32,000 bases of DNA from Pirellula staleyi DSM 6068 (GCA_000025185.1 CP001848.1:2730001-2762000), one strand, 5' to 3'; positions 5,754 to 32,000 are shown, counted from the stretch's first letter. Translations and numbers: made by a program. Notes: a model not told the origin generated them from the sequence alone.

Positions 5754-5992
5754 AGGTTGTGGAACCAACGAGCGAGCGGAATCAGCTGGTTTCCCCATCT
5801 GTCGGGGGCTGCAATGAAGATTGCGCGGCGCGTGACATTCCGCGCGAAACTTTCCCTCTCTCCTTCGGTTAATAGTTTCCATACAGGGTGCATGCAGCAG
5901 CATCTCATCCGCACCCTGCCGCAATAATTGCTGGCTCGAAATCATCAGAGCTGGCAGAGATTGGCGAGCGTACTTCCGGGAGATTCCAGCAG

Positions 5993-7645: not shown

Positions 7646-7707
7646 TGGTTCGTAAGTGCGTGGCGCGAGTGTTGTTCCCCAGTTCTACGTTGGTATCGAG
7701 GTTCCTT

Positions 7708-11584: not shown

Positions 11585-11729
11585 CGTTTGACCAAACGTG
11601 TCATGGTGAAGAAACCGGGGATTTTGGACCCACTCGATAGTGGGAAGTGTACAACGCATCGGATAGACTGACGGGCGTGGAAAAGTAGCAGCAAAACAGC
11701 GCAGCTCTTGCGCCGGATGGCGAGTGGCA

Positions 11730-14852: not shown

Positions 14853-14969
14853 AGAGGTCGCACCAAGCGCGACTCGCTCACACACTGACGCCTGCCAATT
14901 GATCCCAGCTCATCCCAGCTTCTCATCACCTAGAACCACCAATCCTTAGCAAATTCTTCAGGACCATCC

Positions 14970-16001
14970 ATGAGTATCGGCGAGACGATGCAACAAGACG
15001 CGGAGGAGTTCCGCAACCGCTACACGGCTGTCAAAGCTGAAATTCAACGCGTGATTGTGGGACACGACGACATTGTGCACGGCGTCCTCACCGCGATGTT
15101 TATTGGTGGTCACTGCTTGCTGGAAGGTGTACCTGGACTCGGCAAAACGCTGCTGGTCCGCACGCTCTCTGAAACGCTCGACCTGCAGTTTAACCGGATC
15201 CAGTTCACCCCCGACTTGATGCCCTCTGACATTCTCGGCACGAACATGATCAACGAAAACGCCGAAGGTCGGCGTGTGTTCGAGTTTCAAAAAGGGCCGA
15301 TCTTTACACAGATCTGCCTCGCGGACGAAATCAACCGCGCTACGCCAAAAACACAGTCGGCACTTCTGGAAACGATGCAAGAGGGAACCGTCACCGTTGC
15401 TGGTGTCCGCTATCAGCTCGACAAACCGTTCTTTGTCATGGCGACGCAAAACCCGATCGAGCAAGAAGGGACCTACCCGCTCCCTGAAGCGCAGCTCGAT
15501 CGTTTCCTCTTCAAACTCGTCGTGGGCTACTCGAGTCGCGATGAACTAGCGACCGTGGTCGATCGCACCACGCGTGGTGTGGTGATTGAGCCGAAGAAAG
15601 TGATGGATGGGACCGAGATTCGGAAGTGGCAGAAGTTGATTCGCGAAGTGATTCTCGCGCAGCATGTGCAGGATTATCTTGTGCGACTCACGCTCGCCAC
15701 CCATCCTCAAGGACCCTTCGCGCTTCCGGTCACGAATCAATATCTTCGCTGGGGCTCATCGCCCCGTGGTGCGCAAACACTAGCGCTCGCTGCGAAGGTA
15801 CGAGCACTTCTCGAAGGACGCTACAACGTCAGCTTCGAGGATGTGCGCCGCGTTTATCTCCCAGCTATGCGGCACCGTGTGGTGCTGAACTTCGAAGCAC
15901 AAGCCGAGGGTCTGGATACCGATCGTGTGCTGCTCGAAATTCTCGAAAAGCTTCCAGAGAAGGCCGACGATGCCCCGGTCCGCGCCACGCTTTCCAGGTA
16001 A
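14970..16001 (+). CDS. MoxR-family AAA+ ATPase (AAA_3)
   Basis: GHCLLEGVPGLGKTLLVRTLSETLDLQFNRIQFTPDLMPSDILGT, Walker B/sensor ADEINRATPKTQSALLETMQE, and VMATQNPIEQEGTYPLPEAQLDRF. This is the classic MoxR signature. Confidence 0.9.
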   Translation: MSIGETMQQDAEEFRNRYTAVKAEIQRVIVGHDDIVHGVLTAMFIGGHCLLEGVPGLGKTLLVRTLSETLDLQFNRIQFTPDLMPSDILGTNMINENAEGRRVFEFQKGPIFTQICLADEINRATPKTQSALLETMQEGTVTVAGVRYQLDKPFFVMATQNPIEQEGTYPLPEAQLDRFLFKLVVGYSSRDELATVVDRTTRGVVIEPKKVMDGTEIRKWQKLIREVILAQHVQDYLVRLTLATHPQGPFALPVTNQYLRWGSSPRGAQTLALAAKVRALLEGRYNVSFEDVRRVYLPAMRHRVVLNFEAQAEGLDTDRVLLEILEKLPEKADDAPVRATLSR

Positions 16002-16065
16002 TCGCTCGCGAGCCCGTTGCTCGATTTCGTTTCGTGCTCTGTAAACTCCTTGCGACCCATCTCCC

Positions 16066-16956
16066 ATGCCATCCGCGAGTCTGCCACTCCTGAGTCCCGC
16101 GCTCCTTGCCCAGCTCGAACGGCTGGAACTCGTGAGCCGCAAGATCTTTCGTGGACGGATGAAAGGGGAGCGGCGCAGCAAACGCAAAGGGCAGAGTGTC
16201 GAGTTCGCGGATTTTCGGAACTACGTGCCGGGCGATGACCTTCGCTTTATCGACTGGAATCTCTTTGCGCGACTCGAAAAGTTGTTCCTCAAACTGTTCC
16301 TGGAGGAAGAAGATCTCCACTTCTATGCCCTTATCGATACCAGTAGCAGCATGGATTTCGGCGAGCCTTCCAAGCTCAACTATGCCAAGCAACTCGCAGC
16401 AGCACTGGGCTTCATCGGTCTCTGTCGCGCCGATCGTGTGAAGATCGAAACCCTCTCGACAACCACGAAAAACCCTGGTCCGACACTCCGTGGCCGCTCG
16501 AGCATGTGGCGTCTAATGGAGTATCTCGATGGCATAGAGGCTGGCGCTAATATTCCACTCGCCGAAGGGGTGAAGAATTTTTGCATCCGGAACTCTGGCA
16601 AGGGAATCTTGGTACTCATCAGCGACTTGATGGACAAATCGGGCTACGAGCAGGCTTTGCGATTGCTGGTGGCTCAGCAGATGGATGTCTACGTGCTCCA
16701 CGTCATGTCCCCCCTTGAACTCGATCCCGATATCAAAGGGGATCTCAAGCTGGTCGACTGCGAAGATGACGACATCGCTGAGGTGACCGTTAGCAAGCCA
16801 CTTCTCGATCGCTATAAGCGAACCCTAGCCGCCTTCATCGATGGCGCGCGCGAGTTCTGCACGCGCCGCGGCATGAGCTACTTGATGACCAGCACCGATA
16901 CGCCGGTCGATCGTTTGGTCTCGAGCTACCTTCGCAAACGTGGTCTGGTTCGCTAG
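16066..16956 (+). CDS. DUF58 domain protein (MoxR-associated)
   Basis: RKGQSVEFADFRNYVPGDDLRFIDWNLFARLEKLFLKLF is the DUF58 (PF01882) signature. It is followed by a VWA-like ALIDTSSSM block. The gene sits directly downstream of MoxR, as in Bat-type operons. Confidence 0.9.
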   Translation: MPSASLPLLSPALLAQLERLELVSRKIFRGRMKGERRSKRKGQSVEFADFRNYVPGDDLRFIDWNLFARLEKLFLKLFLEEEDLHFYALIDTSSSMDFGEPSKLNYAKQLAAALGFIGLCRADRVKIETLSTTTKNPGPTLRGRSSMWRLMEYLDGIEAGANIPLAEGVKNFCIRNSGKGILVLISDLMDKSGYEQALRLLVAQQMDVYVLHVMSPLELDPDIKGDLKLVDCEDDDIAEVTVSKPLLDRYKRTLAAFIDGAREFCTRRGMSYLMTSTDTPVDRLVSSYLRKRGLVR

Positions 16957-16976
16957 TGCCCAGCTGAGGAATTGTC

Positions 16977-18998
16977 GTGCTCCGTTTTCACCTTCTCATC
17001 GCCGACTTCTTCATCAACACCCTGTCGTTCTGGCAGTGGGGTGTGATCGCGCTGGTTCCGCCCCTGATTTTGGCTCTCTACTTTCTGAAGCTTCGGCGTC
17101 AGCCCCTGGCTGTTCCCAGCACCTATCTCTGGGCCAAAGCGATCGAAGATCTGCATGTCAATTCGCTCTGGCAACGGCTCCGGCAAAACATCCTGCTGCT
17201 GCTGCAGTTGCTGCTCGTGCTGCTGCTGATCTTTTCACTCCTACGCCCCGGGTGGCAGGGGACTGAGCTTCTTCGCAATCGGTTTGTCTTTCTCGTCGAC
17301 ACTTCCGCCAGCATGAGCGCAAGCGATGTGTCGCCAACACGCCTCGACGATGCCAAACGCCAGGCCATCGCCCTCATTCGTCAAATGAAGTCGGGCGATG
17401 TGGCGATGCTGATCAGCTTCTCGGATACGGCGAAGATCGAGCAGAGCTTTACCGATAATCGTCGTCTGCTAGAGCAGAAGGTACAGCTGATCGAGCAAAC
17501 AAATCGACTCAGCGACTTAAGCGAAGCACTTCGAGCCGCTTCGGGACTTGCCAATCCCGGTCAAAGCAGCGACCCCGACAATCCCGACGATACGCAGGTG
17601 GCCGACGAGCTGCCTGCCGAACTGTTCATCTTCAGCGATGGTGGGTTTGCTACGATCCCCAATTTCCGACTCGGCAATCTCGAGCCTCGTTATCAAAAGA
17701 TAGCGACCGACAATATCAAAAACGTCGCTGTCGCCGCATTCAGCACCGAAGGGAACCCCGAGAAGCCGGGGGAAGTGCAGGCCTTCGGTCGCCTCGAGAA
17801 CTATGGCAGCGAGGAAGTGACGGCAGAGGTTTCGCTCTATCTCGAGGATGCCTTGCTCGATGCTAAATCGATCACCATTGCGCCGCGTAGTACCGACACT
17901 AAAGCAGCGGGCTCGACCGGGGTCGATTTCACCCTCGGGGAACTCGAAAGTGGTGTGCTCAAGCTCGAAGTGAATGTGAAAGATCAATTGCCGCTCGATA
18001 ACCGGGCCTATGCCGTAGTGAATTTGCCTCGGCAAGCGAAAGTGCTGCTGGTCACCCCTGGTAACGATCCGCTAATGCTGGCGCTCGCCACCGATGAAGC
18101 GATGAAACTGGCGACTGTCGCAACAATCGATCCCGAGAAGCTGACAACACAAACGGTGAAAGAGCAACTCACCAGTGGTGCCTACGATCTAGTGATCTTC
18201 GACCAATGTGTGCCGACGGAGATGCCAGCCGCCAGTACGCTCTTTATTGGCCGGCTTCCACCTACGCCCGAATGGAAAGCGGGAACCAAGGGGCTGCCAG
18301 TGATCGCCGATGTTGATCAAGTACATCCCCTCACGCAGCTCGTGCAGATGTCGAATGTGAATATCTTCGAGGCCTTTGCCATCGAGGCCTCTCCACCTGG
18401 AAGCACCAAACTGATCGACTCCGATCTGGGCTCGCTCTATGTGGTGGGGCCACGTGGCGGTTATGAAGATGCCGCTATCTCGTTTGACATCTATTCGCAA
18501 GGAAAGGATGGGATTACGGTCAACACGAACTGGCCCATCCGCCGCAGCTTTCCCGTGTTTGTGATGAACGCTGTGAAGTATTTGGGAGGTGTTCGTACTT
18601 CGCTGGCGACCCCGAATGTTAAACCAGGTTTTCCCGCGGTTCTGCGTAGCGACGTACCGGTGAAAAGCCTGCTTGTGGAATCACCACGCGGTGATCAGGT
18701 GGAAGTGCTGCGCGAAGTGACGAGCAACTATGTTTTCACTCGCGTCGACGAGCTTGGGGTGTATAAGGTGCGGGAAGGTTCGGGGCAGAAAGTGAAACAG
18801 CAGTTCGCCGCGAACTTGTTCGACTCTCGTGAAAGTGATTTGACCCCAGCCGATAAACTAGAGATCGGCCACGAAGAAGTGAAGGCAACCGTGGCTCGCC
18901 AAGTGGCCCGCAAAGAGCTGTGGAAATGGCTTCTCGTGGCTGCGATCGTGGTGCTGGTCTTCGAGTGGTATGTCTACAATCGACGAGTCTATTTGTAG
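16977..18998 (+). CDS. BatA-like membrane protein (BatA_N + VWA + GATase1-like module, C-terminal TM)
   Basis: GTG start 16977 is preceded by GAGGA (16966..16970) with a 6-nt spacer. N-terminus: WQWGVIALVPPLILALYFLKLRRQPLAVPSTYLW. VWA MIDAS DTSAS (17298..17312) sits in FVFLVDTSASMSA. LLVTPGNDP...YDLVIFDQCVP is the GATase1-like block. C-terminal TM: LWKWLLVAAIVVLVFEWYVY. Confidence 0.8.
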   Translation: MLRFHLLIADFFINTLSFWQWGVIALVPPLILALYFLKLRRQPLAVPSTYLWAKAIEDLHVNSLWQRLRQNILLLLQLLLVLLLIFSLLRPGWQGTELLRNRFVFLVDTSASMSASDVSPTRLDDAKRQAIALIRQMKSGDVAMLISFSDTAKIEQSFTDNRRLLEQKVQLIEQTNRLSDLSEALRAASGLANPGQSSDPDNPDDTQVADELPAELFIFSDGGFATIPNFRLGNLEPRYQKIATDNIKNVAVAAFSTEGNPEKPGEVQAFGRLENYGSEEVTAEVSLYLEDALLDAKSITIAPRSTDTKAAGSTGVDFTLGELESGVLKLEVNVKDQLPLDNRAYAVVNLPRQAKVLLVTPGNDPLMLALATDEAMKLATVATIDPEKLTTQTVKEQLTSGAYDLVIFDQCVPTEMPAASTLFIGRLPPTPEWKAGTKGLPVIADVDQVHPLTQLVQMSNVNIFEAFAIEASPPGSTKLIDSDLGSLYVVGPRGGYEDAAISFDIYSQGKDGITVNTNWPIRRSFPVFVMNAVKYLGGVRTSLATPNVKPGFPAVLRSDVPVKSLLVESPRGDQVEVLREVTSNYVFTRVDELGVYKVREGSGQKVKQQFAANLFDSRESDLTPADKLEIGHEEVKATVARQVARKELWKWLLVAAIVVLVFEWYVYNRRVYL

Positions 18999-20084: not shown

Positions 20085-23000
20085 TCAAGGCGATGGGGCA
20101 GGGGTCTTAGGTTGTCCAAAAATCTTTTCCAGCCCCTTGTTGAGCCCCTGCTCAAGTAGCCCCTGCACGGCGCGATTGGCGAACTGTTTAGCAAGGTTCC
20201 CAATCGCGGTGCCGTCGAGTTGCGGCTTGTTGATCTGACCACGAATCGGGATCGAGATTCGTTGTCCCTTCAATCCGACCAGCAGTGGTTTGCCGTCGAC
20301 CCATTTGTCGGGAATCGGAATTTCCGACAGCATCTCGAGCGACTGATCGAGCCCGACACTTCCTTGGGTGATGAGGGCCACTTCTTTCACGGTCATCGTG
20401 AGACCACGGTGATAGACCCGACCATCGACCACTTCGACTTGCACTCGTTGTTCGGGCAGGATAATCCAGCCGCGCGGCTCGGTGGGAGCAGTTGCGAGTG
20501 GATTGTTCTCCACGGCGCTCTTCAGCTGCTTGATGACGCCAAGGTATTGCTCGGCCAGCGGGCCGGGACCAATTTGAGCAGCATGGATGGTCAAGAGACC
20601 TCCCGCTGTGATCTCTTTTTCGCGATTCTCTGAGAAGAGTGGCACCGATACGCCCACAAGTTCGACCGAGAAGGTGCCTTGCGCTTCGGTGGCATCCGCG
20701 ACCACGGGGGCGACGAACTTCAGCCAGTCGCGGCACATGTCGGGAGAGATACGAACCTTCGTGAGCAGCGGACCTTTGTCCATGATGAGGCGAGGCTGTG
20801 GTTCCCCCAAAGTGATTCGCGGAGCAGCGATGAATTGTCCTTCGCTGAGCATCATGTCAATCGGTCCAAGGAACAGGACACCATCTGCGAGTTTGGCGCT
20901 CAAAAGTCCTTGCCCACCGACAAGCCCCATGTAGCGAATCGAATCCCAGCCGATGCCCGCTTCTGCCTTCAAAGATTTTGAAATGAATCCTGTGGGAGAG
21001 GATGCATCGGTGGCAGGCTGTAGCAGAGGGCCGGTGATTGAGAATGGCCGGCGGTCTTGCCCGGCGATGTTGAACGTGGGACCTAGAATCGGCGAGAGCA
21101 TTTGGGTGAGCTGTTCCATCACTACAACGGTTTCACCCTTAAGGTCGACGAGCATTTCACTTGTTAGTTTTTCCATCGTCCCCGACATCTGCACGCTGGC
21201 AAATGACGAGAGCAGGTTCATCGAAGCAAGCTGAGCCTTGTCGCTCGTAGGATCGTAGGTGGCTGCGCCGGTGATGCGGGCTGTTTTTTCGCTCCAGCTA
21301 CGCTGCACTGGTTCAAGAGGTCGCGAACCGGGTCGCGCGGCTGGATCAACGGGTGGCTGTTCGAGCCAAACGTACTGCACGTTATTCGCGCTGGTATCGA
21401 TGGTCGCATCAATCACATTGCCGATGTACTTGAGTTCCACGCGGCCAACCAATTCGCCTGTTAGCTGCGATTCGAACGGCTCAGCAGGTTTTTCAAACCA
21501 TTTGCGAAGCCGCGTGAGGTCGCCCCGATATTCCACGAGTCCTGTGACGGCGACACCGGGCGAAGCGGTGGCGATGTTGATGTTCTCGGCGCGAAGAGCG
21601 ATCGACGAACTGCGTACGGTGGTCGATGGAAACGATGCGCTGAAGCTAGCGAGATTCACCACACCACTGGTGGCTACTTCCACACGAGGTTCGCGAATCG
21701 CGAGGCCAGAACCAGTTGCCATCAGCTGCGAAACGATGATCGAGGTTTCGCCAAGTTCGATTTGCTGCGAAGAGAACGCTCCACCACCGCTCCCATCGAT
21801 GACGCCCGCAATGATCCAGTCTCCGAGCGACAGAAACGTTTGAACCCGAGGCATCCAGGTCGCGAGATCCCCTTCGAGTTTCCAGTTCACAGGCCAAAGA
21901 GCACTGGGGGAAGGATTCTTCACCACGCCGGTGAGATTGGCGGTGAAAGCATCGGTTCCTGAGCGGACACTCAGCTGCGCGGCACTCAGCTCCGAAAGAC
22001 CGGTCGCGCTAGGCAAACCTTCTGCTGAGGCAGTGATTTTCAGCTGATCTTCGTGCCACGGGAGGAGTCCTGGCAGAATGACATTGAGCTTATCGAGCGA
22101 GCCATCGGCGGTTAGTTGCCAAGTCTCGCCAGGTTGCTGTTGCCAACGGACATCCAGGTTCATCTGTCCCGCGAGTTCTACCGACGCTAAGTCGATGAGA
22201 CGCGAAAGTTCGCTTGCCAGCTTATCGAGATCGGCTTTCGCGATGAGGCGTCCCGCGCGCAGATCCCCCTCGCCTTGCAGGTCGAGAAAGCTTGATTTCA
22301 CAAAGACTTGCTCGATCGCGGCCAGAGAAAACTCGGGGCGAACGAGGGCCGAGACTTCGAGTGGTTGATCCCAAGCGACTTGACGACCGGCGGCTTCTCC
22401 CTGCAATTTCGAAGTTTTTGCGGTGAGAGAAAACCGCTTAGCTTCAGCAACACCTTGGGATGTCGCGCTGATAGCAAGCGTGCCCGAGGTGATGCGTGCC
22501 GATTCTTTCATGTGCAAAGTAGCCGGCAATTGCTGGGCAATAGCCGCGAGATCGACCGACCCTTCGAGTTGCAAATCGGAGTCGCGGGCCACTTTTTGCC
22601 AATCGATCGGCGCGGAGGTTGCGGTGGAAGTGGGGGCTGGCATCGCCGACCCATCGGGCGCGACCACTACCGGCACGGTGGAAATCGTTGCTGGAATTGC
22701 GATACTTCCGCGACCACTCAGCGAGGCCAAGTTCGAGCGTAGCGAGATCCCCGCCAGCGACCATGCTTCGCCCTTGCGGACAATCTTGGCGCTGCTCTCT
22801 TCCACAGCGACACGCACCATTTCGCCAGCGGCCATGGCTGTCGACTGCACGACAAGATTACGCGAAGAGAGCTTGGAGAGATCGGCCGTCAGTTGCTCGC
22901 CACCATTCGACCACTCGGTCAACACGGTGCACGTAATCGATCCGCCGATGGCCAAGCCTGTTTGAGCACGACGCAAAAATGGTGTTGCGATATCCGCAGG

Positions 23001-23792
23001 AAATTCACTCACCAGCATGCCAGCGCGGCCTGTTCCTAGGCTGCCATCGACACCGGGCGACCATTCGAGTTCGCCTTGAATTTCTCCCACCGACTGTGGG
23101 CTCGCGGGAGGAGCTCCTGCTTCAGCAGCCTGACGAACGACGGCCGAAAACTTCGCTTGTTTAGGTTGATCAGCGGCCGCTGTCCAGTTGGCATCCGCAT
23201 TGAGATTCTCGACGTGGTAAGCCACTTTGGTTTTGTCGTCGATGATTTCGATCAGACCTTGCTCGATCGTTACTCCTACCGCAATCTGCGGCGCAGCTGA
23301 CGAACCGGCGTCATCGCCTGTGGATAGTTTTGCGAGTAGATCCTCGACGTTGCTTCCCTCATCGCGCACGACGATGCGAACCACGGGCTGTGTAATGGTG
23401 ATACGTCCGGGATCTTGCCAGGCACGAACGATGTCGAGCAACGACTTCTCGGTCCGAATCTGCTTCACTGCCGCAATCGGTTCGCCCGCATCGCCACTCA
23501 CCTTCAGCTCATTCACGACAATCGGCGACATCCACGACAAGCTGATGCTCGACGCATCGATCTTGCCAGCGAGCTGCGGCGCGGCATATCCGAGCGCTGT
23601 CTTCCAAAGACCGGTGGAGACAATGATCGTAGGCGCGAAGAAGACTAAAACGCCGAGTAGTACGAGTCCAAGAAATGCCCGAAACAGCCAACCGCCACGT
23701 TTCTTTGGCGCAGGAGTTTCGTCGGCACCATCGTCGTCTGGTACGTCGTAGAGATCATCTTCGGCGACTCGCCGTTTATTACGTTTGGCCAT
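20085..23792 (-). CDS. Giant N-terminally anchored envelope protein, AsmA/TamB/YhdP-like (putative)
   Basis: Track ORF starts at TTG 23807; ATG is at 23792 (MAKRNKRRVAEDDLYDVPDDDGADE...). It has one TM (WLFRAFLGLVLLGVLVFFAPTIIV), then GKIDASSISLSWMSPIVVNELKVSGDAGEPIAAVKQIRTEKSLLDIV...ITITQPVVRIVV, resembling AsmA/TamB N-termini. About 1100 aa of an Ala/Ser/Gly/Leu/Thr-rich body follow, with no catalytic motif that I recognise. That it is coding is near certain; the family call is tentative. Confidence 0.5.
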   Translation of the reverse strand: MAKRNKRRVAEDDLYDVPDDDGADETPAPKKRGGWLFRAFLGLVLLGVLVFFAPTIIVSTGLWKTALGYAAPQLAGKIDASSISLSWMSPIVVNELKVSGDAGEPIAAVKQIRTEKSLLDIVRAWQDPGRITITQPVVRIVVRDEGSNVEDLLAKLSTGDDAGSSAAPQIAVGVTIEQGLIEIIDDKTKVAYHVENLNADANWTAAADQPKQAKFSAVVRQAAEAGAPPASPQSVGEIQGELEWSPGVDGSLGTGRAGMLVSEFPADIATPFLRRAQTGLAIGGSITCTVLTEWSNGGEQLTADLSKLSSRNLVVQSTAMAAGEMVRVAVEESSAKIVRKGEAWSLAGISLRSNLASLSGRGSIAIPATISTVPVVVAPDGSAMPAPTSTATSAPIDWQKVARDSDLQLEGSVDLAAIAQQLPATLHMKESARITSGTLAISATSQGVAEAKRFSLTAKTSKLQGEAAGRQVAWDQPLEVSALVRPEFSLAAIEQVFVKSSFLDLQGEGDLRAGRLIAKADLDKLASELSRLIDLASVELAGQMNLDVRWQQQPGETWQLTADGSLDKLNVILPGLLPWHEDQLKITASAEGLPSATGLSELSAAQLSVRSGTDAFTANLTGVVKNPSPSALWPVNWKLEGDLATWMPRVQTFLSLGDWIIAGVIDGSGGGAFSSQQIELGETSIIVSQLMATGSGLAIREPRVEVATSGVVNLASFSASFPSTTVRSSSIALRAENINIATASPGVAVTGLVEYRGDLTRLRKWFEKPAEPFESQLTGELVGRVELKYIGNVIDATIDTSANNVQYVWLEQPPVDPAARPGSRPLEPVQRSWSEKTARITGAATYDPTSDKAQLASMNLLSSFASVQMSGTMEKLTSEMLVDLKGETVVVMEQLTQMLSPILGPTFNIAGQDRRPFSITGPLLQPATDASSPTGFISKSLKAEAGIGWDSIRYMGLVGGQGLLSAKLADGVLFLGPIDMMLSEGQFIAAPRITLGEPQPRLIMDKGPLLTKVRISPDMCRDWLKFVAPVVADATEAQGTFSVELVGVSVPLFSENREKEITAGGLLTIHAAQIGPGPLAEQYLGVIKQLKSAVENNPLATAPTEPRGWIILPEQRVQVEVVDGRVYHRGLTMTVKEVALITQGSVGLDQSLEMLSEIPIPDKWVDGKPLLVGLKGQRISIPIRGQINKPQLDGTAIGNLAKQFANRAVQGLLEQGLNKGLEKIFGQPKTPAPSP

Positions 23793-23840
23793 CACTGCAC
23801 CGCACAAAAAGCCGAGAAATCGCGGGATAAATACCCCGCC

Positions 23841-23846
23841 ATTCTA
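23841..23846 (-). promoter_or_regulatory. Candidate -10 box TAGAAT upstream of the giant gene
   Basis: Plus-strand attcta reads TAGAAT on the minus strand, roughly 45-50 nt upstream of the ATG at 23792, inside the ~230-nt gap after the MCE gene. No convincing -35 is present. Confidence 0.2.
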
Positions 23847-24023
23847 CGCGGTTGTACACTTTGCGACCTAGGTCGAATTCGCAAGATGAAAGAGCCGAGT
23901 TTGACGCGTGCAGTGGCCGCTAGCAAGCTCGCCAGCAGCGTGCCGTTAGGCCAAGAGATAGGCTCGCATGGAGCCCGAAAAATGCCAACTGCTAGCGAGT
24001 GCTTAGGGTGTCGCGAAGGGTCG

Positions 24024-25214
24024 TTATTCTTGGGGAAACGGCGTAGAATCCCACGAAGTTTGGTCGATCGTGAAAGGTTCGTAGCTTTCGCCGTCGTTGT
24101 AAACGGCTGGCTTGGTGCCAACCCCCAGCGGCCGGCGATCGATGGCACCCTTCACGCCGAGCTGACGAGGATCGCGAGCAATCTTGTCACTAAAGATGCG
24201 CACGTCATCGAGAATCGGCTTGATGCGCGAGGTGATATCTTCGGCATTGGCCAGGGTGCGATTCAGCCGATCGTAAAGCTCGCCATCGTTCATCAGGCGG
24301 CCGAGCGTACCTTCGCGGCTGTTCAGCCCATCGGTGAATTCCACCAGTTGCTCGAGAAGCTGATTTACATTCGACAGGCTGCCGTCGAGGTTCTCAGCAA
24401 TCTGTCCACCTCGTTCACCCAGTGGCTTGGTGAAGTTTTCGAGATTTGCCAGGTTGCGATCTGCTCGCTCGCTCACACTCTTGAATCCCTCAAATGCTTC
24501 GTTTGCGTTCTGCAGGGTCACGCGAGCTTCCGCCAGAAGTTTCGGTACATCGTTGAGTGACTGCTTCATCCCGTCGCGCAGTTCTGGATCGCCAAACACC
24601 GTGTTGATAGTGCTCATCGTGGTGTTGAATTGATCGAGCGCCTTCTCTGTTTTTTGAAACAAACGAGGAAGCTGATCATCGTTGTTAGCGACGACGGCAT
24701 TCAAGTTCGAGGCGGTCTGACCGACCCGATTGCTCGCTTCTTGAATGCTTCGCAGTGCGATCCGCATGTCGGTTTCGAGATTCACAAGCACGTCGAGCGG
24801 ATTACCCGCGACCACACCGTTTTGAATCTCCGAGCCGTCGGTCAGTTGCTGTGGATTCGCGACAACAGCATTGCCCGGAACAAACTCAAGCACGGCATCA
24901 CCGAGCACGCTGGCGGTGGCAATGCGGCAGAGTTCGCTGTCGAGAATTACATAGCGGCTGTCGATATCGGTCGACACGCGCACACCGCTGGGCTTCATCA
25001 GCTCGACTTGGGTCACGCGACCGATCGAGACACCACTTTTTCGTACAGGTGTCCCTACGGTTACGCCTGGGGCGGTCGGAAACAGCACCGAGACTTCATA
25101 GGTGCTCGTCCCTGGAAAGGGCATGTCGCCGAGTCGCGTCACCAAGATGCCGGTGATGATGGCGGCGATGAGTACGACGACGCCGACGCGAAACCGAAGT
25201 GTTCTTTCATCCAT
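24024..25214 (-). CDS. mlaD: MCE/MlaD-family protein with a single MCE domain and a long helical C-terminal extension
   Basis: N-terminal TM (FRVGVVVLIAAIITGILV). MCE domain: YEVSVLFPTAPGVTVGTPVRKSGVSIGRVTQVEL...LGDAVLEFVPG. About 275 aa of heptad-like Asn/Leu/Glu-rich sequence follow, including GTLGRLMNDGELYDRLNRTL. Confidence 0.85.
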   Translation of the reverse strand: MDERTLRFRVGVVVLIAAIITGILVTRLGDMPFPGTSTYEVSVLFPTAPGVTVGTPVRKSGVSIGRVTQVELMKPSGVRVSTDIDSRYVILDSELCRIATASVLGDAVLEFVPGNAVVANPQQLTDGSEIQNGVVAGNPLDVLVNLETDMRIALRSIQEASNRVGQTASNLNAVVANNDDQLPRLFQKTEKALDQFNTTMSTINTVFGDPELRDGMKQSLNDVPKLLAEARVTLQNANEAFEGFKSVSERADRNLANLENFTKPLGERGGQIAENLDGSLSNVNQLLEQLVEFTDGLNSREGTLGRLMNDGELYDRLNRTLANAEDITSRIKPILDDVRIFSDKIARDPRQLGVKGAIDRRPLGVGTKPAVYNDGESYEPFTIDQTSWDSTPFPQE

Positions 25215-25321
25215 GACCGTTCTCGCATCCTGCTATTGGCCACACGATTATCGTGGAAAACCGGCGGCAAACGTTCGTTATCGATGATTTGTTGGTGAAG
25301 TGGTTTCGAAAGACAAGGCGT

Positions 25322-26191
25322 TTAGTGGGCAGGCATCATGGCACTCGATTGACGAAGTTCCATGAGCCGCTCGCCCGCTTCGCCACGAATGAACTGCCGA
25401 ACGCGACGATCCTTGCAGCGCTCGAGTTCTTCTGGCGTTCCATCGAAAATCACTTGCGATTCTTCAGGGCTAAGTCGAGGGAGCGGATAGAGCATCACCA
25501 CTCGATCGGCCACTTTGTGAGCAGTTCGCATGTCGTGCGTGATCACGATGCCGGTGACATTGTGATGTCGGCGCGTGCTCATGATGAGTTCGTTAATCAC
25601 GTCGCTCATGATCGGGTCGAGACCGGTGGTTGGCTCGTCGTAGAGCATCAGTTCGGGATTGAGCACAAGCGCTCGCGCGAGACCTACGCGTTTACGCATA
25701 CCACCCGATAATTCAGCCGGTTTTTTCGTCACGACGGTATCGGGCAAACCAACTTCGGCGAGTCGCGCTAGTACCAGTTCCTGCACCTGCTTGTCGGTCA
25801 CTTGGCGATGTTGACGCAAGGGAAACGCAACATTCTGGCCCACCGTCATGCTGTCGAACAAAGCCGCGTTTTGGAACAAATAGCCGAGCCGAATTCGCTC
25901 ACGTGTCAGCTCTTTATCGCTGAGGCGACTTAAGTTCTTTCCGTCGAACAGCACTTCGCCAGAGGTGGGACGAAGCAGGCCGACGAGCGATTTAAGGAGC
26001 ACTGTTTTTCCACAGCCCGATTCGCCAATGATGCAGCAGGTTTGTCCTCGTGGAATGGTGAGCGACAGATTGCGCAGCACTCGCTGCGTACCGAACTGCA
26101 CACTCACGTCACGAATGTCGACGAGGGGCCGGTCGCGCGAAGTGGATTCGCGGCTTGGCATGTCGCTCGGTGATGTTGGTTCGTTTTCCAC
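25322..26191 (-). CDS. mlaF: ABC transporter ATP-binding protein, MlaF type
   Basis: Walker A GESGCGKT, Q-loop LFQNAALF, signature LSGGMRKRVGLARAL, Walker B LMLYDEPTTGLDP, H-loop ITHD. The start is GTG 26191 or ATG 26161. Confidence 0.9.
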   Translation of the reverse strand: MENEPTSPSDMPSRESTSRDRPLVDIRDVSVQFGTQRVLRNLSLTIPRGQTCCIIGESGCGKTVLLKSLVGLLRPTSGEVLFDGKNLSRLSDKELTRERIRLGYLFQNAALFDSMTVGQNVAFPLRQHRQVTDKQVQELVLARLAEVGLPDTVVTKKPAELSGGMRKRVGLARALVLNPELMLYDEPTTGLDPIMSDVINELIMSTRRHHNVTGIVITHDMRTAHKVADRVVMLYPLPRLSPEESQVIFDGTPEELERCKDRRVRQFIRGEAGERLMELRQSSAMMPAH

Positions 26192-26222
26192 GGCAAAAAC
26201 CTACAGGATTAGGGAGTATCGA

Positions 26223-27092
26223 CTAGAACAGTTTCCCGGCATTCGGAACGAGTTGATAGTAAAGCGTGTAGAGCATTTTCCCGAGGAACAGGTCGATCAC
26301 GAGGATCAGGACAAACGAATGGACAAAGGCTGCGGTTGCAGCGCGACCGACACCTTCAGCACCGGGGGTGCAGTGAAAACCGCGATAGCAACTCACCACC
26401 GCAATCGCAGCCCCAAAGAAGAGACTCTTCAGAATGCCACTGAACAGATCGAAGTTGCCGACGAACTGTTCGCTGTTGTACCAGTAGTGATGTTTGTCGA
26501 TGCTTAAAACGACGGTGCTATAGAAATAGCCCCCCACCACTCCCATGAAGTCGGCCATGATTGTGAGGGTGGGAATCAGGAATAGGCACGCGAGAAATCG
26601 TGGGACTACCAGATAGTAAATCGGATCGGCCCCCATGCTCTCCAGCGCGTCGATCTGCTCGGTCACGCGCATCGTGCCGAGTTCTGCTGCCATGGCGCAG
26701 CCAACGCGACCAGCGAGCATCGTCGCGGCCAGCACCGGGCCAAGCTCGCGCACCAGCGTCATGTTGATGACAGCTCCCATGCGCGTTTCGAGTCCCAGAT
26801 CGCGAAACGTAAAGTAGCTCTGCACGGCAAGCACCATGCCGATGAACGTGCCAGTGAGCGCGATCACCGGAAGACTCAGCACACCCACTTGGTAGAAGTT
26901 GGGAAGCAAGGTTTCGCGGCGTGGAAGCTTAAAGAGCATCCAGCTGATCGTGCGCATCGCAAAAATCGTGAGATCGCCAATTGTGATCAGTCCATCGACG
27001 ACCACGGCCCCCCAGTCGGTCACCTGATCGGCAAGCGATTGCAGAATCCCTGCCGGTGGCTGCTGGTTGCTGGTTGGTGCGTCGGTCGACAT
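26223..27092 (-). CDS. mlaE: MlaE-family ABC transporter permease
   Basis: VRELGPVLAATMLAGRVGCAMAAELGTMRVTEQIDALESMGADPIYYLVVPRFLA is the conserved MlaE (PF02405) core. The protein has multiple TM segments. The ATG is at 27092. Confidence 0.9.
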   Translation of the reverse strand: MSTDAPTSNQQPPAGILQSLADQVTDWGAVVVDGLITIGDLTIFAMRTISWMLFKLPRRETLLPNFYQVGVLSLPVIALTGTFIGMVLAVQSYFTFRDLGLETRMGAVINMTLVRELGPVLAATMLAGRVGCAMAAELGTMRVTEQIDALESMGADPIYYLVVPRFLACLFLIPTLTIMADFMGVVGGYFYSTVVLSIDKHHYWYNSEQFVGNFDLFSGILKSLFFGAAIAVVSCYRGFHCTPGAEGVGRAATAAFVHSFVLILVIDLFLGKMLYTLYYQLVPNAGKLF

Positions 27093-27358
27093 CGCAAATC
27101 CTCGCGACTTTCCGTGTCATGTTCTGGAAGTTTTGCTCAGCCGCTTGGGCCGACACTTCGCTCCCTGGATATTGCGCAGGGAGGGATAGTCAGCGGCTAT
27201 TTTCGGTTGTAGCGACTGCAGAGCTTGAGTCGAGTTTACGGCCTGAACCATTTTTTCTGAAGTTTCCGGCAATTTCTGCCGAAGGGAGCCTCACTTCAGT
27301 GCCTTGCTAGCAGGGTTCAGCGCCAATTTGTGGCCCACCTGGGTGTCATTAGCAGAAG

Positions 27359-28621
27359 TTGAGCGAGGGGACGATCCCTTTTGCATTGCCGCTAGCAGAG
27401 AATTACGATCGACCATCCAGCAAGTCCGCAGCGCATGGCCCCGCGCTACTCGCGACACCGCTGCTGCCGGAGGTCCCAGTGACGATTGACCCAGTGGTTC
27501 GATTTCGAAGCGACATCGAGAAGCTCTCGCCGTCGAGTGATCTCTACGCGACGACGTTTGTCGAGAAACTTCTCGCGCTCGCGATTGAGCTTGGCGCGAG
27601 CGATATCCATTTGCAGCCGACCGCAGGCAAGTTGACGATCGATTTGCGGATCGATGGTGTGCTGCAGTCGGTGGGGCTGTTCAGTGCCGGGACCTCGACC
27701 GACATTATCGCGCGGCTGAAGGTGCTGGCCAAACTCCTGACTTATCGAACCGACGTTCCTCAAGAAGGTCGCTTGCACGATCCAGCTCAAGCGATCGAAA
27801 TGCGCATCAGCACCTTTCCGACGATGGCTGGCGAGCGCGCGGTGGTTCGGCTGTTTGCTCCACGTGGCAAGTTGCGCACGCTTGGCGAACTCGAGTTCAG
27901 CGCCGATGTGCTTCGTCAGCTTCACGATTGGCTCGCGCAGTCGAGCGGCGCCATCCTCCTCACAGGACCTGCCGGGAGCGGCAAGTCGACGACCGCTTAC
28001 GCCGCACTGCGCCACGTGGCAAGCAACTCCACCATGCGTCGCAGCATCCTCACGCTTGAAGATCCAATCGAAGTGGTGGTGGAAGGGGCTGTTCAGTCGC
28101 AGGTTCAACCCTCTGCCGGTTTCACCTTGGCAACAGGGCTCCGCTCTCTGCTGCGCCAAGACCCTGAAGTCATCATGGTGGGAGAAGTGCGCGATCGCGA
28201 GACGGTGGAAACCTTGATTCAAGCCTCGCTGACCGGGCATCTCGTCGTGAGCACGTTTCATGCGGGGAGCACCGCTGACGCACTTTGCCGTCTCCTTGAT
28301 CTGGGGATCGAGCCGTACTTGGTACGCTCCGCCATTCGCGGTCTTTGGCATCAACGCCTCTTGCGTCGCCGAGCGGCAGAATCGATGGACTACGCAGGCC
28401 GGTTTCCGATCGTCGAGGTACTTCCGCCGCTCGAAGGGGAGCTTGCAAAGAAACTTCTCGCTCGCAGCGACGCGCGCGAGATTCAGCAGGCGAGTCTATG
28501 CGCGGGAATGATTCCCCTCCGATCGCGCGCGGAAGAAGCACTCGCGAGTGGGAGAACCGATTTGGCCGAGATTGTTCGAGTTCTCGGAATTTCTGCTGGC
28601 GATCCCCCCACGATCGAGTAG
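27359..28621 (+). CDS. GspE/PilB-family secretion ATPase (T2SSE), compact form
   Basis: GASDIHLQP, Walker A GPAGSGKST, Asp box LTLEDPIEV, Walker B VIMVGEVRD, His box LTGHLVVSTFHAG. No in-frame ATG lies upstream of the conserved core, so the start is non-ATG (TTG 27359 or a downstream TTG/GTG). The protein is at most 420 aa. Confidence 0.85.
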   Translation: MSEGTIPFALPLAENYDRPSSKSAAHGPALLATPLLPEVPVTIDPVVRFRSDIEKLSPSSDLYATTFVEKLLALAIELGASDIHLQPTAGKLTIDLRIDGVLQSVGLFSAGTSTDIIARLKVLAKLLTYRTDVPQEGRLHDPAQAIEMRISTFPTMAGERAVVRLFAPRGKLRTLGELEFSADVLRQLHDWLAQSSGAILLTGPAGSGKSTTAYAALRHVASNSTMRRSILTLEDPIEVVVEGAVQSQVQPSAGFTLATGLRSLLRQDPEVIMVGEVRDRETVETLIQASLTGHLVVSTFHAGSTADALCRLLDLGIEPYLVRSAIRGLWHQRLLRRRAAESMDYAGRFPIVEVLPPLEGELAKKLLARSDAREIQQASLCAGMIPLRSRAEEALASGRTDLAEIVRVLGISAGDPPTIE

Positions 28622-28687
28622 AATCGCGTCGCTTATCTAGGCCACTTTTCTATCATCCTCCGTCATATCCGCTCATCTACCACGTCG

Positions 28688-29755
28688 ATGGATCAGCGCA
28701 CCTCCTCCGTACTCGGGATCGAGCAACTCGCTTGCTTACACGACGAGATCGCTGCGATCTCGCGAGCAAAGTTGCCTCTTGGCGATGCGCTCACGGCGTT
28801 TGGCAACGATGTACCTGGAAAGCTCGGAGCAGCAGCGCGTGAAGTGGGGAGTCGAATTGCCAGCGGAGAATCGCTCGAACAAGCGGTCGGGGCCGTTTCC
28901 TCGCACTGGCCGCAGGCTTACTCGGCCGTCGTCAAGATTGGTGTGCGGGTCGGACGACTTCCAGCGGCGCTTGAAGCGATTGCCGATGTCAGCCGCACGA
29001 TTGTGGCTGCCCGACGCGCCGTTCTCTCGGCGATGATCCCACCCCTATTTGTTTTTTTCCTCGGCTATGGACTGTTGCTGTTTTTCATTGCCACCTCCGC
29101 GCAAACGATGCTGGACTTTGCGCTCGAACTCAAAGTGCCTCGCATCGAGCAGTTACAGTCAATATTCGATGCCACGCGATCAACCATGTGGCTCTGGGGC
29201 CCCGCGATCCCACTGCTAATCATCGCCTATCTCGCCTTCTCGTGGTTTCGGCTTGGGCGGACGATTCGAGTTTCCCCCGAACGAGGTCGGCGTTCGCTGC
29301 ATCCAGTCCGACGCCTGGCATCGCTGCAAGCTTTTCAGATGCAGGCTACTTTTTGCGATCTCCTCGCGCTTTTGGTCGAAAACCAAGTTCCTCTTCCTGA
29401 AGCGATTCGACTCGCTCAGCGCGCGCTAGGACCTTCGCTAGAACACCCCTCGCTCGAAGTTTGGGCCACCGCGCTCGAGCGAGGTGAACGTGCTCCTCGA
29501 TTTCCCGAAGTATTGCCGAGCGCTTTGGAAGCCGCTTTAACCAGTGGTGATCCACGCGCAAACGCCCTGGTGCTGCGGGCCATCGCTACCGAGCGCCGTC
29601 GCGAAGCTGCCAGCGGGCTGTACTGGCTCACCACCAAGTTTCCGCTGATTGCTGTCTTCCTCTTCGCCGGATCGATGGCGATCACTTATGTTGCCGTCAC
29701 CATCGTGCCGTGGATGTTGATGCTCAATCGGCTTTCCACACTGGAGGGGTTATGA
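28688..29755 (+). CDS. GspF/PilC-type platform protein, paralog 1 (two T2SSF repeats)
   Basis: Repeat 1: IASGESLEQAVGAVSSHWPQAYSAVVKIGVRVGRLPAALEAIAD, followed by TM IPPLFVFFLGYGLLLFFI. Repeat 2: LVENQVPLPEAIRLAQ...LPSALEAALTSGD, followed by a C-terminal TM. This is the T2SSF (PF00482) pattern, read by eye. Confidence 0.7.
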   Translation: MDQRTSSVLGIEQLACLHDEIAAISRAKLPLGDALTAFGNDVPGKLGAAAREVGSRIASGESLEQAVGAVSSHWPQAYSAVVKIGVRVGRLPAALEAIADVSRTIVAARRAVLSAMIPPLFVFFLGYGLLLFFIATSAQTMLDFALELKVPRIEQLQSIFDATRSTMWLWGPAIPLLIIAYLAFSWFRLGRTIRVSPERGRRSLHPVRRLASLQAFQMQATFCDLLALLVENQVPLPEAIRLAQRALGPSLEHPSLEVWATALERGERAPRFPEVLPSALEAALTSGDPRANALVLRAIATERRREAASGLYWLTTKFPLIAVFLFAGSMAITYVAVTIVPWMLMLNRLSTLEGL

Positions 29756-30798
29756 GCCAAGTCCCTCCTCCCGAAAATGCCCCACTACTAGTTTCTAGTT
29801 CCGCGAATCAGTCGCTTGTTTCGGCCGCCATGCTGCTGGCCACCACACTTTCGCAGCGAGAAGAAGTCCATCTTCGCCGCATCGCCGAGTTGCTCTCGCA
29901 AGGGATGACGATCGACCAGGCTCTCTCGCACGATGCGAAGAAGGTGCGCGTTGTTTCGCTCACGTCGGTCGCTGCGCTGAAGCTCGCAGCCAGCAGCGCT
30001 GAACCAGTCATCGCCATGAGTCGCTGGATCGAAAACCGCGCGCGGGGCAAACGTGTCTGGCAGCGCTTTCGCTCCGCTGTCGGCTATAGCGTCTGGGTAT
30101 CGCTCGGAACCATCGTGCCACTCCTGTTGCTGCAATGGGGCTGGGGTGTTTTCATTTACTCGCCACTGCTCACCATGATTCGCGAATTCGGGCTTAGCAA
30201 CATCCCAGTTCATTTCGAGGGGCTCGAGTGGTGGATGCTCCGAGGAGCGCCAGCCAGTTTGGCGCTGTACATCGCCGCGCTCGTCGCTGTCGGACTCTTT
30301 CGAATCCTCAGCGGCCCACTCGCCTGGTCCCGCTTCAGCCGAGCTATACCCGTTCTTGGTCCGATGCAGCAATGGACATCTGCCGCCTGGTGGATGAAAG
30401 ATCTTTCGCTGCTCCTAGAGTCCGAGCAGACCCTTCCTGCCGCAATTGCAGGGACAAGTCAACTCGGCCACGATCCGGTACTGATCGAGTTGTCCGAAGA
30501 GCTTGGTCGCGAGATCGCATCCGGCCAAACGTTGGCTGCTTCCATCGGCCGCTTTAGTGAGATTCCAGGCTCGGTGATTCCGCTTGTTTCGCTCGGCGAA
30601 AGGCAAAATTCACTTCCTGCCCAGTTGATGTGTGGTGCCGAGATTCTCGAGGCACGACTCGAAGCCTGGGCAGAATTCCTTTCCGGCACGCTCCCCACCA
30701 TTTTGCTGATGTTGGTCGGTCTCGTGGCGTTCGGTCTGCTCTATCAATCGATTGCGATGGGACAGGTGATGATGATGGTGATACAAGGACTTACATAA
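29752..30798 (+). CDS. GspF/PilC-type platform protein, paralog 2
   Basis: ATG 29752 is preceded by GGAGG (29743..29747) and overlaps the upstream stop as ATGA. Repeat 1: LLSQGMTIDQAL. Repeat 2: IASGQTLAASIGRFSEIPGSVIPLVSLGERQNSLPAQL, plus the C-terminal TM LPTILLMLVGLVAFGLLY. Confidence 0.6.
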   Translation: MSQVPPPENAPLLVSSSANQSLVSAAMLLATTLSQREEVHLRRIAELLSQGMTIDQALSHDAKKVRVVSLTSVAALKLAASSAEPVIAMSRWIENRARGKRVWQRFRSAVGYSVWVSLGTIVPLLLLQWGWGVFIYSPLLTMIREFGLSNIPVHFEGLEWWMLRGAPASLALYIAALVAVGLFRILSGPLAWSRFSRAIPVLGPMQQWTSAAWWMKDLSLLLESEQTLPAAIAGTSQLGHDPVLIELSEELGREIASGQTLAASIGRFSEIPGSVIPLVSLGERQNSLPAQLMCGAEILEARLEAWAEFLSGTLPTILLMLVGLVAFGLLYQSIAMGQVMMMVIQGLT

Positions 30799-30864
30799 AG
30801 CGATGGAACGAGACCCGGTTCGGGCAGCCGAACGACCCTAACGTTTTTTGACGAACGATTTCTG

Positions 30865-32000
30865 ATGGGACCTGTTGCGTTTCTACTACTGCTGCCGCTG
30901 GCCGTGGCCCTCAAGATGGCAAGTCGCCTACTCGAGCCGCTCGATCAACGTTCGCGCGCGAGCACGTACTATCTGCTCGATCAGGTAAGCCATCTTCTCT
31001 TTATTTTCGTACTGTTTGCTTTGATCTGGGTACTCACAGGGTGGCTCTCCCTGTTGGTGAACCTGCTGCTGATCGTGGTGCTGCTGATGTATGTCGATCG
31101 CTTTCGACGCGCCGAGCACGAAGCGCTCCTCTGGTCGCTCGCTATCTCAGCCGAACGTGGCGTGAACATCATCGAGGCCGCTGAAGCCTATGCAAGTGAA
31201 TCGACAAGCGACGTGGCAATTCGCAGCAGCGCCATAGCGACCTCGCTACGCGGTGGACAATCGCTCGAAAATGCGGTGCGTTATGCTCGCTTGCGACTCT
31301 CGACCTGCATGAAGCTTGCCGTCAGTTTCGGTGGACGCCTGGGCCGAGTTTCTCCTCTGCTGGAACTTCAGAAAAGCGAGGCCATGGCTGTCGCCAATCA
31401 GCTGCGAGGGCAAGTTCTGAATGTCATCATGCTCCTGTTTCAGCTGTTTGTGCTCTGCTTTGTCGTTTGCTTCACGATACTTAAGATTATGCCCGTGATG
31501 AGAAAAATATTAAGCGAGTTCGGTCTGAAAGAACCCGACGCTTTTCAGTTCGTATATCGGCTGCTTGAGCAAGACTGGTTCTTTCCGCTCGGTGGCATCA
31601 TCGTCACCGTAGTTGCGATTGCTGGGCCGATACTGATGGCTTTGCTGATCTTCATTTACGTCGGATGGATATCACGTGGTCTACCAGGAATCTCTTGGAT
31701 GACTCGCCGCTACGATGCGGCACTTGTCCTCGCGGGAATTCGGCACGGAGTGCTGGCAGGACTTCCGCTCGATGAAACGCTCCTGCGTTTGGCACAGGTT
31801 TATCCCCTTTGGTCGATTCGTCACCGACTCGAATTGGCCCGGCGACGGATTGCGGGTGGAGCCAACTGGACGACTGCTCTGCAGAACGTGGGGCTCCTTC
31901 CTCAGGCGGATGCGGCTCTGCTCGATTCCGCAGAGCGGGCTGGCAATCTCCCTTGGGCTTTGAAGGCAGTGAGTGAAGGACTCCTGCGGAGGCTATTGCG
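30865..32000 (+). CDS. GspF/PilC-type platform protein, paralog 3, with an extra N-terminal hydrophobic region (3' end outside the window)
   Basis: It is not in the ORF track because it has no stop in the window. ATG 30865 is the first start codon after the in-frame TAA at 30796. Translation: MGPVAFLLLLPLAVALK...HLLFIFVLFALIWVLTGWLSLLVNLLLIVVLLMY, then LRGGQSLENAVRYA and LLDSAERAGNLPWALKAVSE (T2SSF-like repeats). It is open to position 32000. Confidence 0.55.
   Translation, partial: MGPVAFLLLLPLAVALKMASRLLEPLDQRSRASTYYLLDQVSHLLFIFVLFALIWVLTGWLSLLVNLLLIVVLLMYVDRFRRAEHEALLWSLAISAERGVNIIEAAEAYASESTSDVAIRSSAIATSLRGGQSLENAVRYARLRLSTCMKLAVSFGGRLGRVSPLLELQKSEAMAVANQLRGQVLNVIMLLFQLFVLCFVVCFTILKIMPVMRKILSEFGLKEPDAFQFVYRLLEQDWFFPLGGIIVTVVAIAGPILMALLIFIYVGWISRGLPGISWMTRRYDAALVLAGIRHGVLAGLPLDETLLRLAQVYPLWSIRHRLELARRRIAGGANWTTALQNVGLLPQADAALLDSAERAGNLPWALKAVSEGLLRRLL

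Follow-up and report, generated by a model that had tools for sequence, protein, structure and literature searches.

A conserved operon of Planctomycetia with three full-length platform paralogues, a candidate type IV filament machine

How the GspF/PilC platform proteins oligomerise and how they act is still debated, with arguments on record for dimers, trimers and tetramers. PulF has been argued to be a homotrimer whose central channel is lined by a Tyr of the first transmembrane segment (TMS1) and by a Glu of the third (TMS3; E370 in PulF) that is conserved across GspF/PilC, and the same study proposes that TadB and TadC would form a trimer of heterodimers (PMC10790770). CpaG/CpaH has been modelled as a C3 trimer of heterodimers (PMC12019362), and F was recently described as "most plausibly a homotrimer" (bioRxiv 10.64898/2026.05.07.723501). 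In a large survey of type IV filament systems, which does not mention Planctomycetes, platform genes come in pairs only in Tad and in some archaeal systems (PMC6668835). Our own searches of the PDB, by Foldseek and by sequence, yielded cytoplasmic domains and an architectural model from 2016 and no experimental structure of a full-length platform. Here we describe a locus of Pirellula staleyi DSM 6068 in which one GspE/PilB-type assembly ATPase gene (E) is followed by three platform genes (F1, F2 and F3). The four genes occupy the right end of the 32,000-nucleotide stretch of DNA that was analysed (CP001848.1:2730001-2762000, referred to as the window), with F3 cut by the window end.

Comparison with related genomes identifies these genes, on the evidence of conserved gene content, as the first half of an operon that is conserved in Planctomycetia and specific to that class. 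It contains E, F1, F2, F3, three small pilin-like genes and a gene for a pilin of the DUF1559/H-X9-DG family, with a small membrane protein gene in Pirellulaceae. We read the operon as encoding a type IV filament machine, specific to Planctomycetia and of the type II secretion (T2SS)/endopilus kind, with a hetero-oligomeric platform, in its simplest form a 1:1:1 pseudo-trimer, and we put the probability of this reading at roughly 0.55. A preliminary description of the locus had offered a heteromeric inner-membrane platform or an undescribed filament or secretion machine as alternatives; the two are mutually compatible, and both are strengthened here. The existence of orthologue groups in fixed order, frequent F2~F3 fusions and an AlphaFold2 model of one such fusion argue for a heteromeric platform. 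An undescribed machine is suggested by the larger conserved operon, by the failure of every curated equivalog model, and by the literature on Planctomycetes, GspE/GspF, pilins and DUF1559, including a 2025 review of the phylum, in which we found no description of the operon.

The four products in the window are exact matches to ADB16811.1-ADB16814.1 (UniProt D2R1U2-D2R1U5), all encoded on the plus strand. E (27479..28621, 380 aa, ADB16811.1) carries an intact T2SSE domain, and its deposited start is the GTG at 27479; the TTG at 27359, where the preliminary description began the ATPase, merely opens the longest open reading frame (ORF; 420 aa). F1 (28688..29755, 355 aa, ADB16812.1), F2 (29752..30798, 348 aa, ADB16813.1) and F3 (30865..32000, ADB16814.1) each match Pfam T2SSF (PF00482) in two stretches, with scores of 71.7, 46.7 and 28.8 bits, respectively, against a cut-off of 25.2. 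F3 is 419 aa long, with 378 codons in the window and 41 beyond its end, and its window part is 100% identical to the 419-aa P. staleyi protein (P0001). Coordinates and Pfam matches thus bear out an ATPase gene followed by three same-strand ORFs with two T2SSF repeats apiece. A length of about 350-380 aa was also proposed for each ORF, along with the expected membrane segments; this is right for F1 and F2, in which hydropathy finds three hydrophobic segments each, and wrong for F3, which is longer and has an additional N-terminal membrane extension. The N-domain is absent from all three F groups.

The three paralogues had been judged old as opposed to recent duplicates, and this holds up well. 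BLASTP between F1 and F2 finds a best segment of 29% identity across 146 residues that is out of register, and F1/F3 and F2/F3 give marginal or non-significant segments (best E 0.001 and 1.5, respectively). When the groups are compared by hhalign, collinear full-length homology emerges, with E from 3e-55 (F1/F2) to 5e-27. The window genes score 363 (F1), 360 (F2) and 362 (F3) bits with the hidden Markov model (HMM) of their own group, against at most 63 for F1 with the other models and 37 for F2 with the F1 model. Across all genes scored, the HMM for the gene's own position typically gives 300-490 bits versus about 40-200 with the other two, a two- to ten-fold advantage per gene. Identity averages 34-38% inside a group, 19-24% from one group to another (about 20% mutually) and 18-22% against bona fide PilC, so F1, F2 and F3 are as distant from one another as from another member of the family. 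A neighbour-joining tree recovers each group with bootstrap values of 69, 57 and 100; the pairing of F1 with F2 is weak. Ratios of nonsynonymous to synonymous substitution (dN/dS) against a 98.2%-identical strain (L082) are 0.13 for E, 0.04 for F1, 0.29 for F2 and 0.07 for F3. Judged from these comparisons, F1, F2 and F3 are separate orthologue groups under purifying selection, evidently old and maintained. A reading in which a single F gene works and its two companions are decaying duplicates, or an artefact of annotation, is effectively refuted: F3 does lie barely above the Pfam threshold and the P. staleyi F1 and F3 lack the conserved TMS1 Tyr, but the three ORFs are intact, they belong to separate orthologue groups across at least five families, dN/dS is 0.04-0.29, and with at most about 24% identity between groups the duplications are not recent.

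Conservation of the E-F-F-F order, proposed as a check on the locus, was examined by scanning one genome per GTDB species with an F3 alignment, giving 117 confirmed matches. The best 80 of these are all from Planctomycetota, among them members of Pirellulaceae, Lacipirellulaceae, Thermoguttaceae, Planctomycetaceae, Isosphaeraceae and Gemmataceae. HMMs were built for E, F1, F2 and F3, and all six-frame ORFs of the loci were scored. The order F1-F2-F3 is present in 55 of the 63 loci having enough upstream DNA, and E lies upstream within 5.2 kb in 30 of 45; in Isosphaeraceae and some Pirellulaceae it is encoded elsewhere. A DUF1559 pilin gene follows 0.5-3.3 kb downstream in 51/62 loci. ORFs resembling the three small pilin-like genes lie at conserved offsets.

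The operon beyond the window was read from two relatives, L082 and L001 (F3 50% identical). The preliminary description saw no pseudopilin gene; this is correct within the window, but pilin-like genes come directly after its end, and in L082 the first of them starts 4 nt ahead of the F3 stop. Start/stop overlaps of 4 nt chain F3 to the next four genes, g5, g6, g7 and g8. The first three encode small proteins of 143, 188 and 190 aa, with prepilin-type N-termini in g5 (RRG|TTISE) and g6 (AG|KSLVE) and a hydrophobic N-terminus without Glu5 in g7. The 378-aa g8 product combines an N_methyl segment with a GspG-like N-terminus, a DUF1559 domain and a C-terminal H-X9-DG motif, read in the sequence as H-PGGAMFVLG-DG. 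It scores 154 with PF07596 (threshold 23.3), 32.7 with TIGR04294 (19) and 27 with TIGR02532 (16.3), placing it within the DUF1559 family above curated thresholds. After g8 comes a 143-aa membrane protein, and a small membrane protein is found at this position in Pirellulaceae.

When the locus is held against the known machines, no curated NCBIfam equivalog model for T2SS, the type IVa pilus, Com or Tad is reached, and all are missed by wide margins. The GspF model (TIGR02120) gives 59 bits for F1, 39 for F2 and 30 for F3 against a cut-off of 424, and a canonical T2SS has one such gene, not three. For the type IVa pilus, PilB scores 272 against 676 and PilC at most 27 against 700; for the Com pilus, ComGA scores 210.6 against 300 and ComGB at most 33 against 240. 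The TadA-family model gives 40.6 bits against 373, and the F proteins, at 348-419 aa with two T2SSF stretches each, do not fit a Tad/Flp system. The locus is a member of the superfamily that belongs to no named subtype. With g5-g8 of L082 included, it does match the "generic" type IV filament system of Denise et al. (2019), in which ATPase, platform and major pilin genes occur together.

The closest likeness is to PulF/GspF. Shared features are the T2SSF family itself, with two cytoplasmic six-helix bundles and three membrane helices, a GspE-like ATPase partner, GspE and GspF as the best NCBIfam matches and, in part and at the level of the groups, a Tyr-Pro in TMS1 and a Pro in TMS3. The differences are that there are three genes here instead of one, that the N-domain is missing and the TMS3 Glu replaced, that F3 has an extra N-terminal membrane segment, that all scores stay far below the GspE and GspF equivalog cut-offs, and that no GspC/L/M/D is called nearby. 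The Tad proteins TadB/TadC (CpaG/CpaH) are comparable as the only well-known multi-gene platform, where six T2SSF bundles come from non-identical chains. However, TadB and TadC are half-size proteins with one T2SSF domain each that arose by gene fission (PMC6668835; PMC12019362), whereas F1, F2 and F3 are each full-size with two domains, so that a ring would be 3 x 2 from three chains and not 3 x (1+1); the ATPase, too, is GspE/PilB-like as opposed to TadA/CpaF-like.

That ATPase scores 269.2 bits with Pfam T2SSE (PF00437; E = 5.5e-80, gathering threshold 24.9), and its best NCBIfam match is GspE (TIGR02533) at 315 bits against a cut-off of 630, starting from model position 110. Its best PDB match is EpsE (1P9R), of which only the N2E and CTE domains are covered, the alignment ending where the CM subdomain begins. 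The GspL-binding N1E domain is absent, and E orthologues are all about 400 aa and without N1E. The Cys residues of the GspE zinc site are kept in 38 of the 41 E orthologues, mostly as C-x-C ... C-x-x-C with the two pairs ~25-30 residues apart, and only the window, L082 and L001 have lost the Zn-binding CM segment of roughly 30 residues. The "compact" size of E is thus explained by loss of the whole CM segment in this Pirellula clade, at 28460-28540 in the window (E residues ~330-350). Neither GspC/L/M, GspD, PilT nor PilMNOPQ was called within about 10 kb either side of the locus in L001 and L082, and GspC/L/M and GspD were not called in the window's upstream 27 kb either, these statements applying to the locus as distinct from the rest of the genome. 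Because E lacks N1E and no GspL/M/C is called near the Pirellula-clade loci, E probably docks directly on a ring formed by the F proteins.

One line of evidence for a shared platform is the fusion of F2 to F3. In 8 loci F2~F3 is a single continuous ORF with a product of about 770-950 aa. A search of 5.8 billion proteins added at least 11 more such fusions, and F2~F3 fusions make up 48 of the 150 best F3-type 50%-identity clusters (HMMER, 1.84 billion cluster representatives). The linkers are 19-28 residues long and rich in Gly, Gln, Tyr or Pro in seven of the eight loci, and 133 residues long with extra hydrophobic segments in the eighth (L050); they are non-homologous and cannot be aligned between lineages. 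AlphaFold2 prediction of one 790-residue fusion (P0019, 33-sequence alignment) gave a mean predicted local distance difference test (pLDDT) value of 87.5 and a predicted TM-score (pTM) of 0.83, and pLDDT drops below 50 only in the linker (355-371), in the seven N-terminal residues and in a short loop at 400-404. The model is thus a confident one of a single rigid assembly and implies that the F2 and F3 modules, as predicted, hold a defined relative placement within one fusion; of the contacts proposed for the platform, the tight association of F2 with F3 is the one that is shown. A metagenomic protein of 1342 aa (P0126) was considered as a larger natural fusion and rejected; its frame runs from F2~F3 into minor-pilin-like sequence, and it is most likely F2~F3 extended by a frameshift or a gene-calling artefact.

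These fusions speak against a different view of the three genes, in which F1, F2 and F3 are each homo-oligomeric and alternate on the single E, each serving its own class of DUF1559 or minor pilin. Such a division of labour would suit the dozens of DUF1559 pilin paralogues per planctomycete, the coincidence of three F genes with three minor-pilin-like genes, and the existence of orphan F3 copies. Recurrent covalent fusion nevertheless forces F2 and F3 into one complex, the AlphaFold2 model packs the two modules in one assembly, and order and copy number are fixed in 55/63 loci, with no gain or loss of a single paralogue seen in the main operon, which is unlike what independent substrate-specific modules would predict. 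We consider alternating platforms distinctly unlikely.

F3 is set apart from F1 and F2 by an N-terminal extension. This F3-specific membrane extension (residues 1-81; 30865..31107, plus strand) comprises hydropathy segments 1-23 and 35-81, that is, one hydrophobic helix and a roughly 45-residue hydrophobic hairpin, probably three helices in all, and is not found in F1 or F2. Most F3 orthologues keep it, as their HMM match begins at positions 2-4. The GspF-like core of F3 starts at about residue 90, and from residue 92 onward F3 aligns to F1 residues 21-307. An odd number of spans would put the F3 N-terminus in the periplasm. At the fusion junction the last F2 membrane helix leads through the linker into the first helix of the extension, and with a periplasmic platform C-terminus and an odd number of extra F3 helices, hydropathy would have the fusion keep the cytoplasmic domains of F3 inside.

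The extra helices fit an arrangement in which F1 alone forms a homotrimeric platform and a tight F2/F3 heterodimer surrounds it, for example at 3:3:3, replacing the GspL/M/C or PilM/N/O subcomplex that serves alignment and anchoring. F1 is indeed the most GspF-like paralogue, having the top GspF score and a match that runs the full length of the protein (residues 8-337), and its group keeps the TMS1 Tyr-Pro; F2 and F3 act as a unit, being fused in a third of F3-type clusters and occurring as orphan pairs without F1. With no N1E in E and no GspL/M/C called in the flanks, another anchor may also be needed. On the other hand, F2 and F3 keep the complete two-repeat, three-helix architecture collinear with F1, along with two residues of platform proteins that form a pore, the Tyr in TMS1 and the Pro in TMS3. 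A nine-subunit T2SSF assembly would be unprecedented and would not be accommodated by the pore of the ATPase in the PulF and CpaGH models. Equal, coupled expression of the three genes suits 1:1:1 as well as 3:3:3. On balance an F1 core with F2/F3 accessories seems rather unlikely.

Under our preferred reading of a hetero-oligomeric platform, F1, F2 and F3 would together form one platform, most simply a 1:1:1 pseudo-threefold ring, whose six T2SSF helical bundles would face the pore of the E hexamer in the same geometry as proposed for the PulF/GspF homotrimer and the CpaG/CpaH trimer of heterodimers. ATP-driven conformational changes of E would be transmitted via the F ring, which would pull peptidase-processed pilins from the membrane and add each to a growing filament, primed by the three minor pilins and built of DUF1559 pilins. 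A place for F1 in that ring, the subunit ratio and the nature of the filament are things that we infer. At the pore-lining positions, the TMS1 Tyr is kept in F1 (50/54), F2 (59/59) and F3 (70/73), with Pro as the next residue in the F1 and F2 groups and Leu in the F3 group, and the TMS3 Pro is conserved across all three.

Several observations weigh against this picture. None of the three groups retains the TMS3 Glu, which has given way to the hydrophobic residues Leu, Val, Phe or Tyr, and the P. staleyi F1 and F3, atypically for their groups, lack the TMS1 Tyr; because of these changes the platform, as judged from sequence, may not work exactly like PulF. No F1 fusion occurs among the 150 best F3-type clusters, contact of F1 with F2 or F3 is something we infer, and the pTM of 0.83 belongs to a covalent fusion, so the model points to a defined F2:F3 arrangement and not to a ring. 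About one locus in three has no E next to the F genes, and only two F genes are found at the one Gemmataceae locus (L077). Large genomes also carry orphan copies without F1, ATPase or recognisable pilin genes nearby, either F3 alone in Singulisphaera (L060:9815-11074, L079:9842-11071 and L081:9821-11068) or F2+F3 pairs, unfused or fused (L030:8567-11257, L040:8846-11227 and L013:8726-11086). The F subunits are therefore not strictly inseparable, and the orphan copies may be exchangeable platform subunits. Finally, gene calls over about 10 kb around the locus in L001 and L082 include neither a secretin nor a prepilin peptidase.

The spacing of the genes agrees with the preliminary description. 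F1 and F2 overlap by the ATGA at 29752..29755 (plus strand), as read directly in the sequence, implying translational coupling, and the same 4-nt overlap is called in L001 and L082. The gap between F2 and F3 (30799-30864) is exactly 66 nt, as is that between E and F1 (28622-28687). Neither spacer shows unusual RNA structure relative to shuffled sequence (z about 0.4 for both) or contains a terminator-like site, and the terminator scan was not above shuffle expectation. In some Thermoguttaceae- and Planctomycetaceae-type genomes E and F1 are instead separated by two genes, for a roughly 185-aa extracytoplasmic function (ECF) sigma-70 factor and a small anti-sigma-like membrane protein (L016:6621-7600, L025:6657-7663, L028:6527-7105 and L053:6355-7358), which hints at control of the operon by envelope signals.

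Upstream of E, the ORF map gives a divergent intergenic region from mlaE (minus strand) to E at 27093..27478. This is the presumed promoter region of the operon; a promoter consensus scan of it found nothing promoter-like above shuffle expectation. The Mla-like operon that diverges from E (20085-27092, minus strand) encodes MlaE, an ATP-binding cassette (ABC) ATPase, MlaD and a protein of 1240 aa that DUF748 matches weakly, below threshold, and its adjacency to E is kept only within Pirellulaceae (window, L082, L001, L004 and L006). Farther upstream, 5888-9006 and 11724-18998 hold gene sets typical of planctomycetes, including a pair made up of DUF1549/DUF1553 (PSCyt2/PSD1) and DUF1501, and a MoxR AAA_3, DUF58 and BatA/VWA cluster adjoining a 1042-aa protein with VWA and GATase1-like domains. 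Base composition is uniform along the window, with no sign of a recently acquired island.

Within Planctomycetes the nearest described counterpart is the Plim_0401-0410 operon of Planctopirus limnophila (PMC10632474). It, too, is specific to Planctomycetes and resembles a type IV filament operon, encoding ATPases of the GspE family and one T2SSF protein, and it is almost entirely essential by transposon sequencing. Its gene content differs, running E, PilT, E and one F followed by six phylum-restricted hypothetical genes and not E-F-F-F, and on the supplementary tables of that paper it was ruled out as an orthologue. The loci at Plim_0426, 0753, 1294 and 1369 were also considered and are not E-F-F-F. 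Of the GspE paralogues in that genome only Plim_0408 and Plim_0410, both in the single-F operon, are essential and the six others are non-essential, so any P. limnophila orthologue of E, if there is one, would be dispensable in the laboratory.

The g8 product belongs to the largest paralogue family of Planctomycetes, otherwise known only as a large paralogous expansion, with 68 DUF1559 paralogues in P. limnophila (PMC10632474) and 91 in T. immobilis (PMC8567305). Two DUF1559 proteins are essential in P. limnophila, and the literature we retrieved links the family to no dedicated assembly machine. Assembly of DUF1559 pilin filaments is the obvious candidate for the function of the operon. A more ambitious version, which we regard as unlikely, is that the operon is a dedicated DUF1559/H-X9-DG assembly machine that builds the fibres of crateriform structures, with an obligate asymmetric F1:F2:F3 heterotrimer in which each subunit gates one minor pilin and templates the filament tip. 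Such fibres are believed to trap macromolecules that the cell then takes into its enlarged periplasm. If this version were true, the platform would be the first naturally symmetry-broken type IV filament rotor.

What the locus offers is three distinct full-length platform genes kept in fixed order for the whole history of one bacterial class, and with it independent evolutionary support for a three-protomer platform. A three-gene platform opens the way to subunit-specific mutagenesis and to the question of whether all three pilin entry gates are needed, and its broken symmetry would help cryo-electron microscopy. For the Planctomycetes themselves, the operon is the first concrete candidate for a machine that handles DUF1559 pilin-like proteins, of which each of their genomes encodes dozens.

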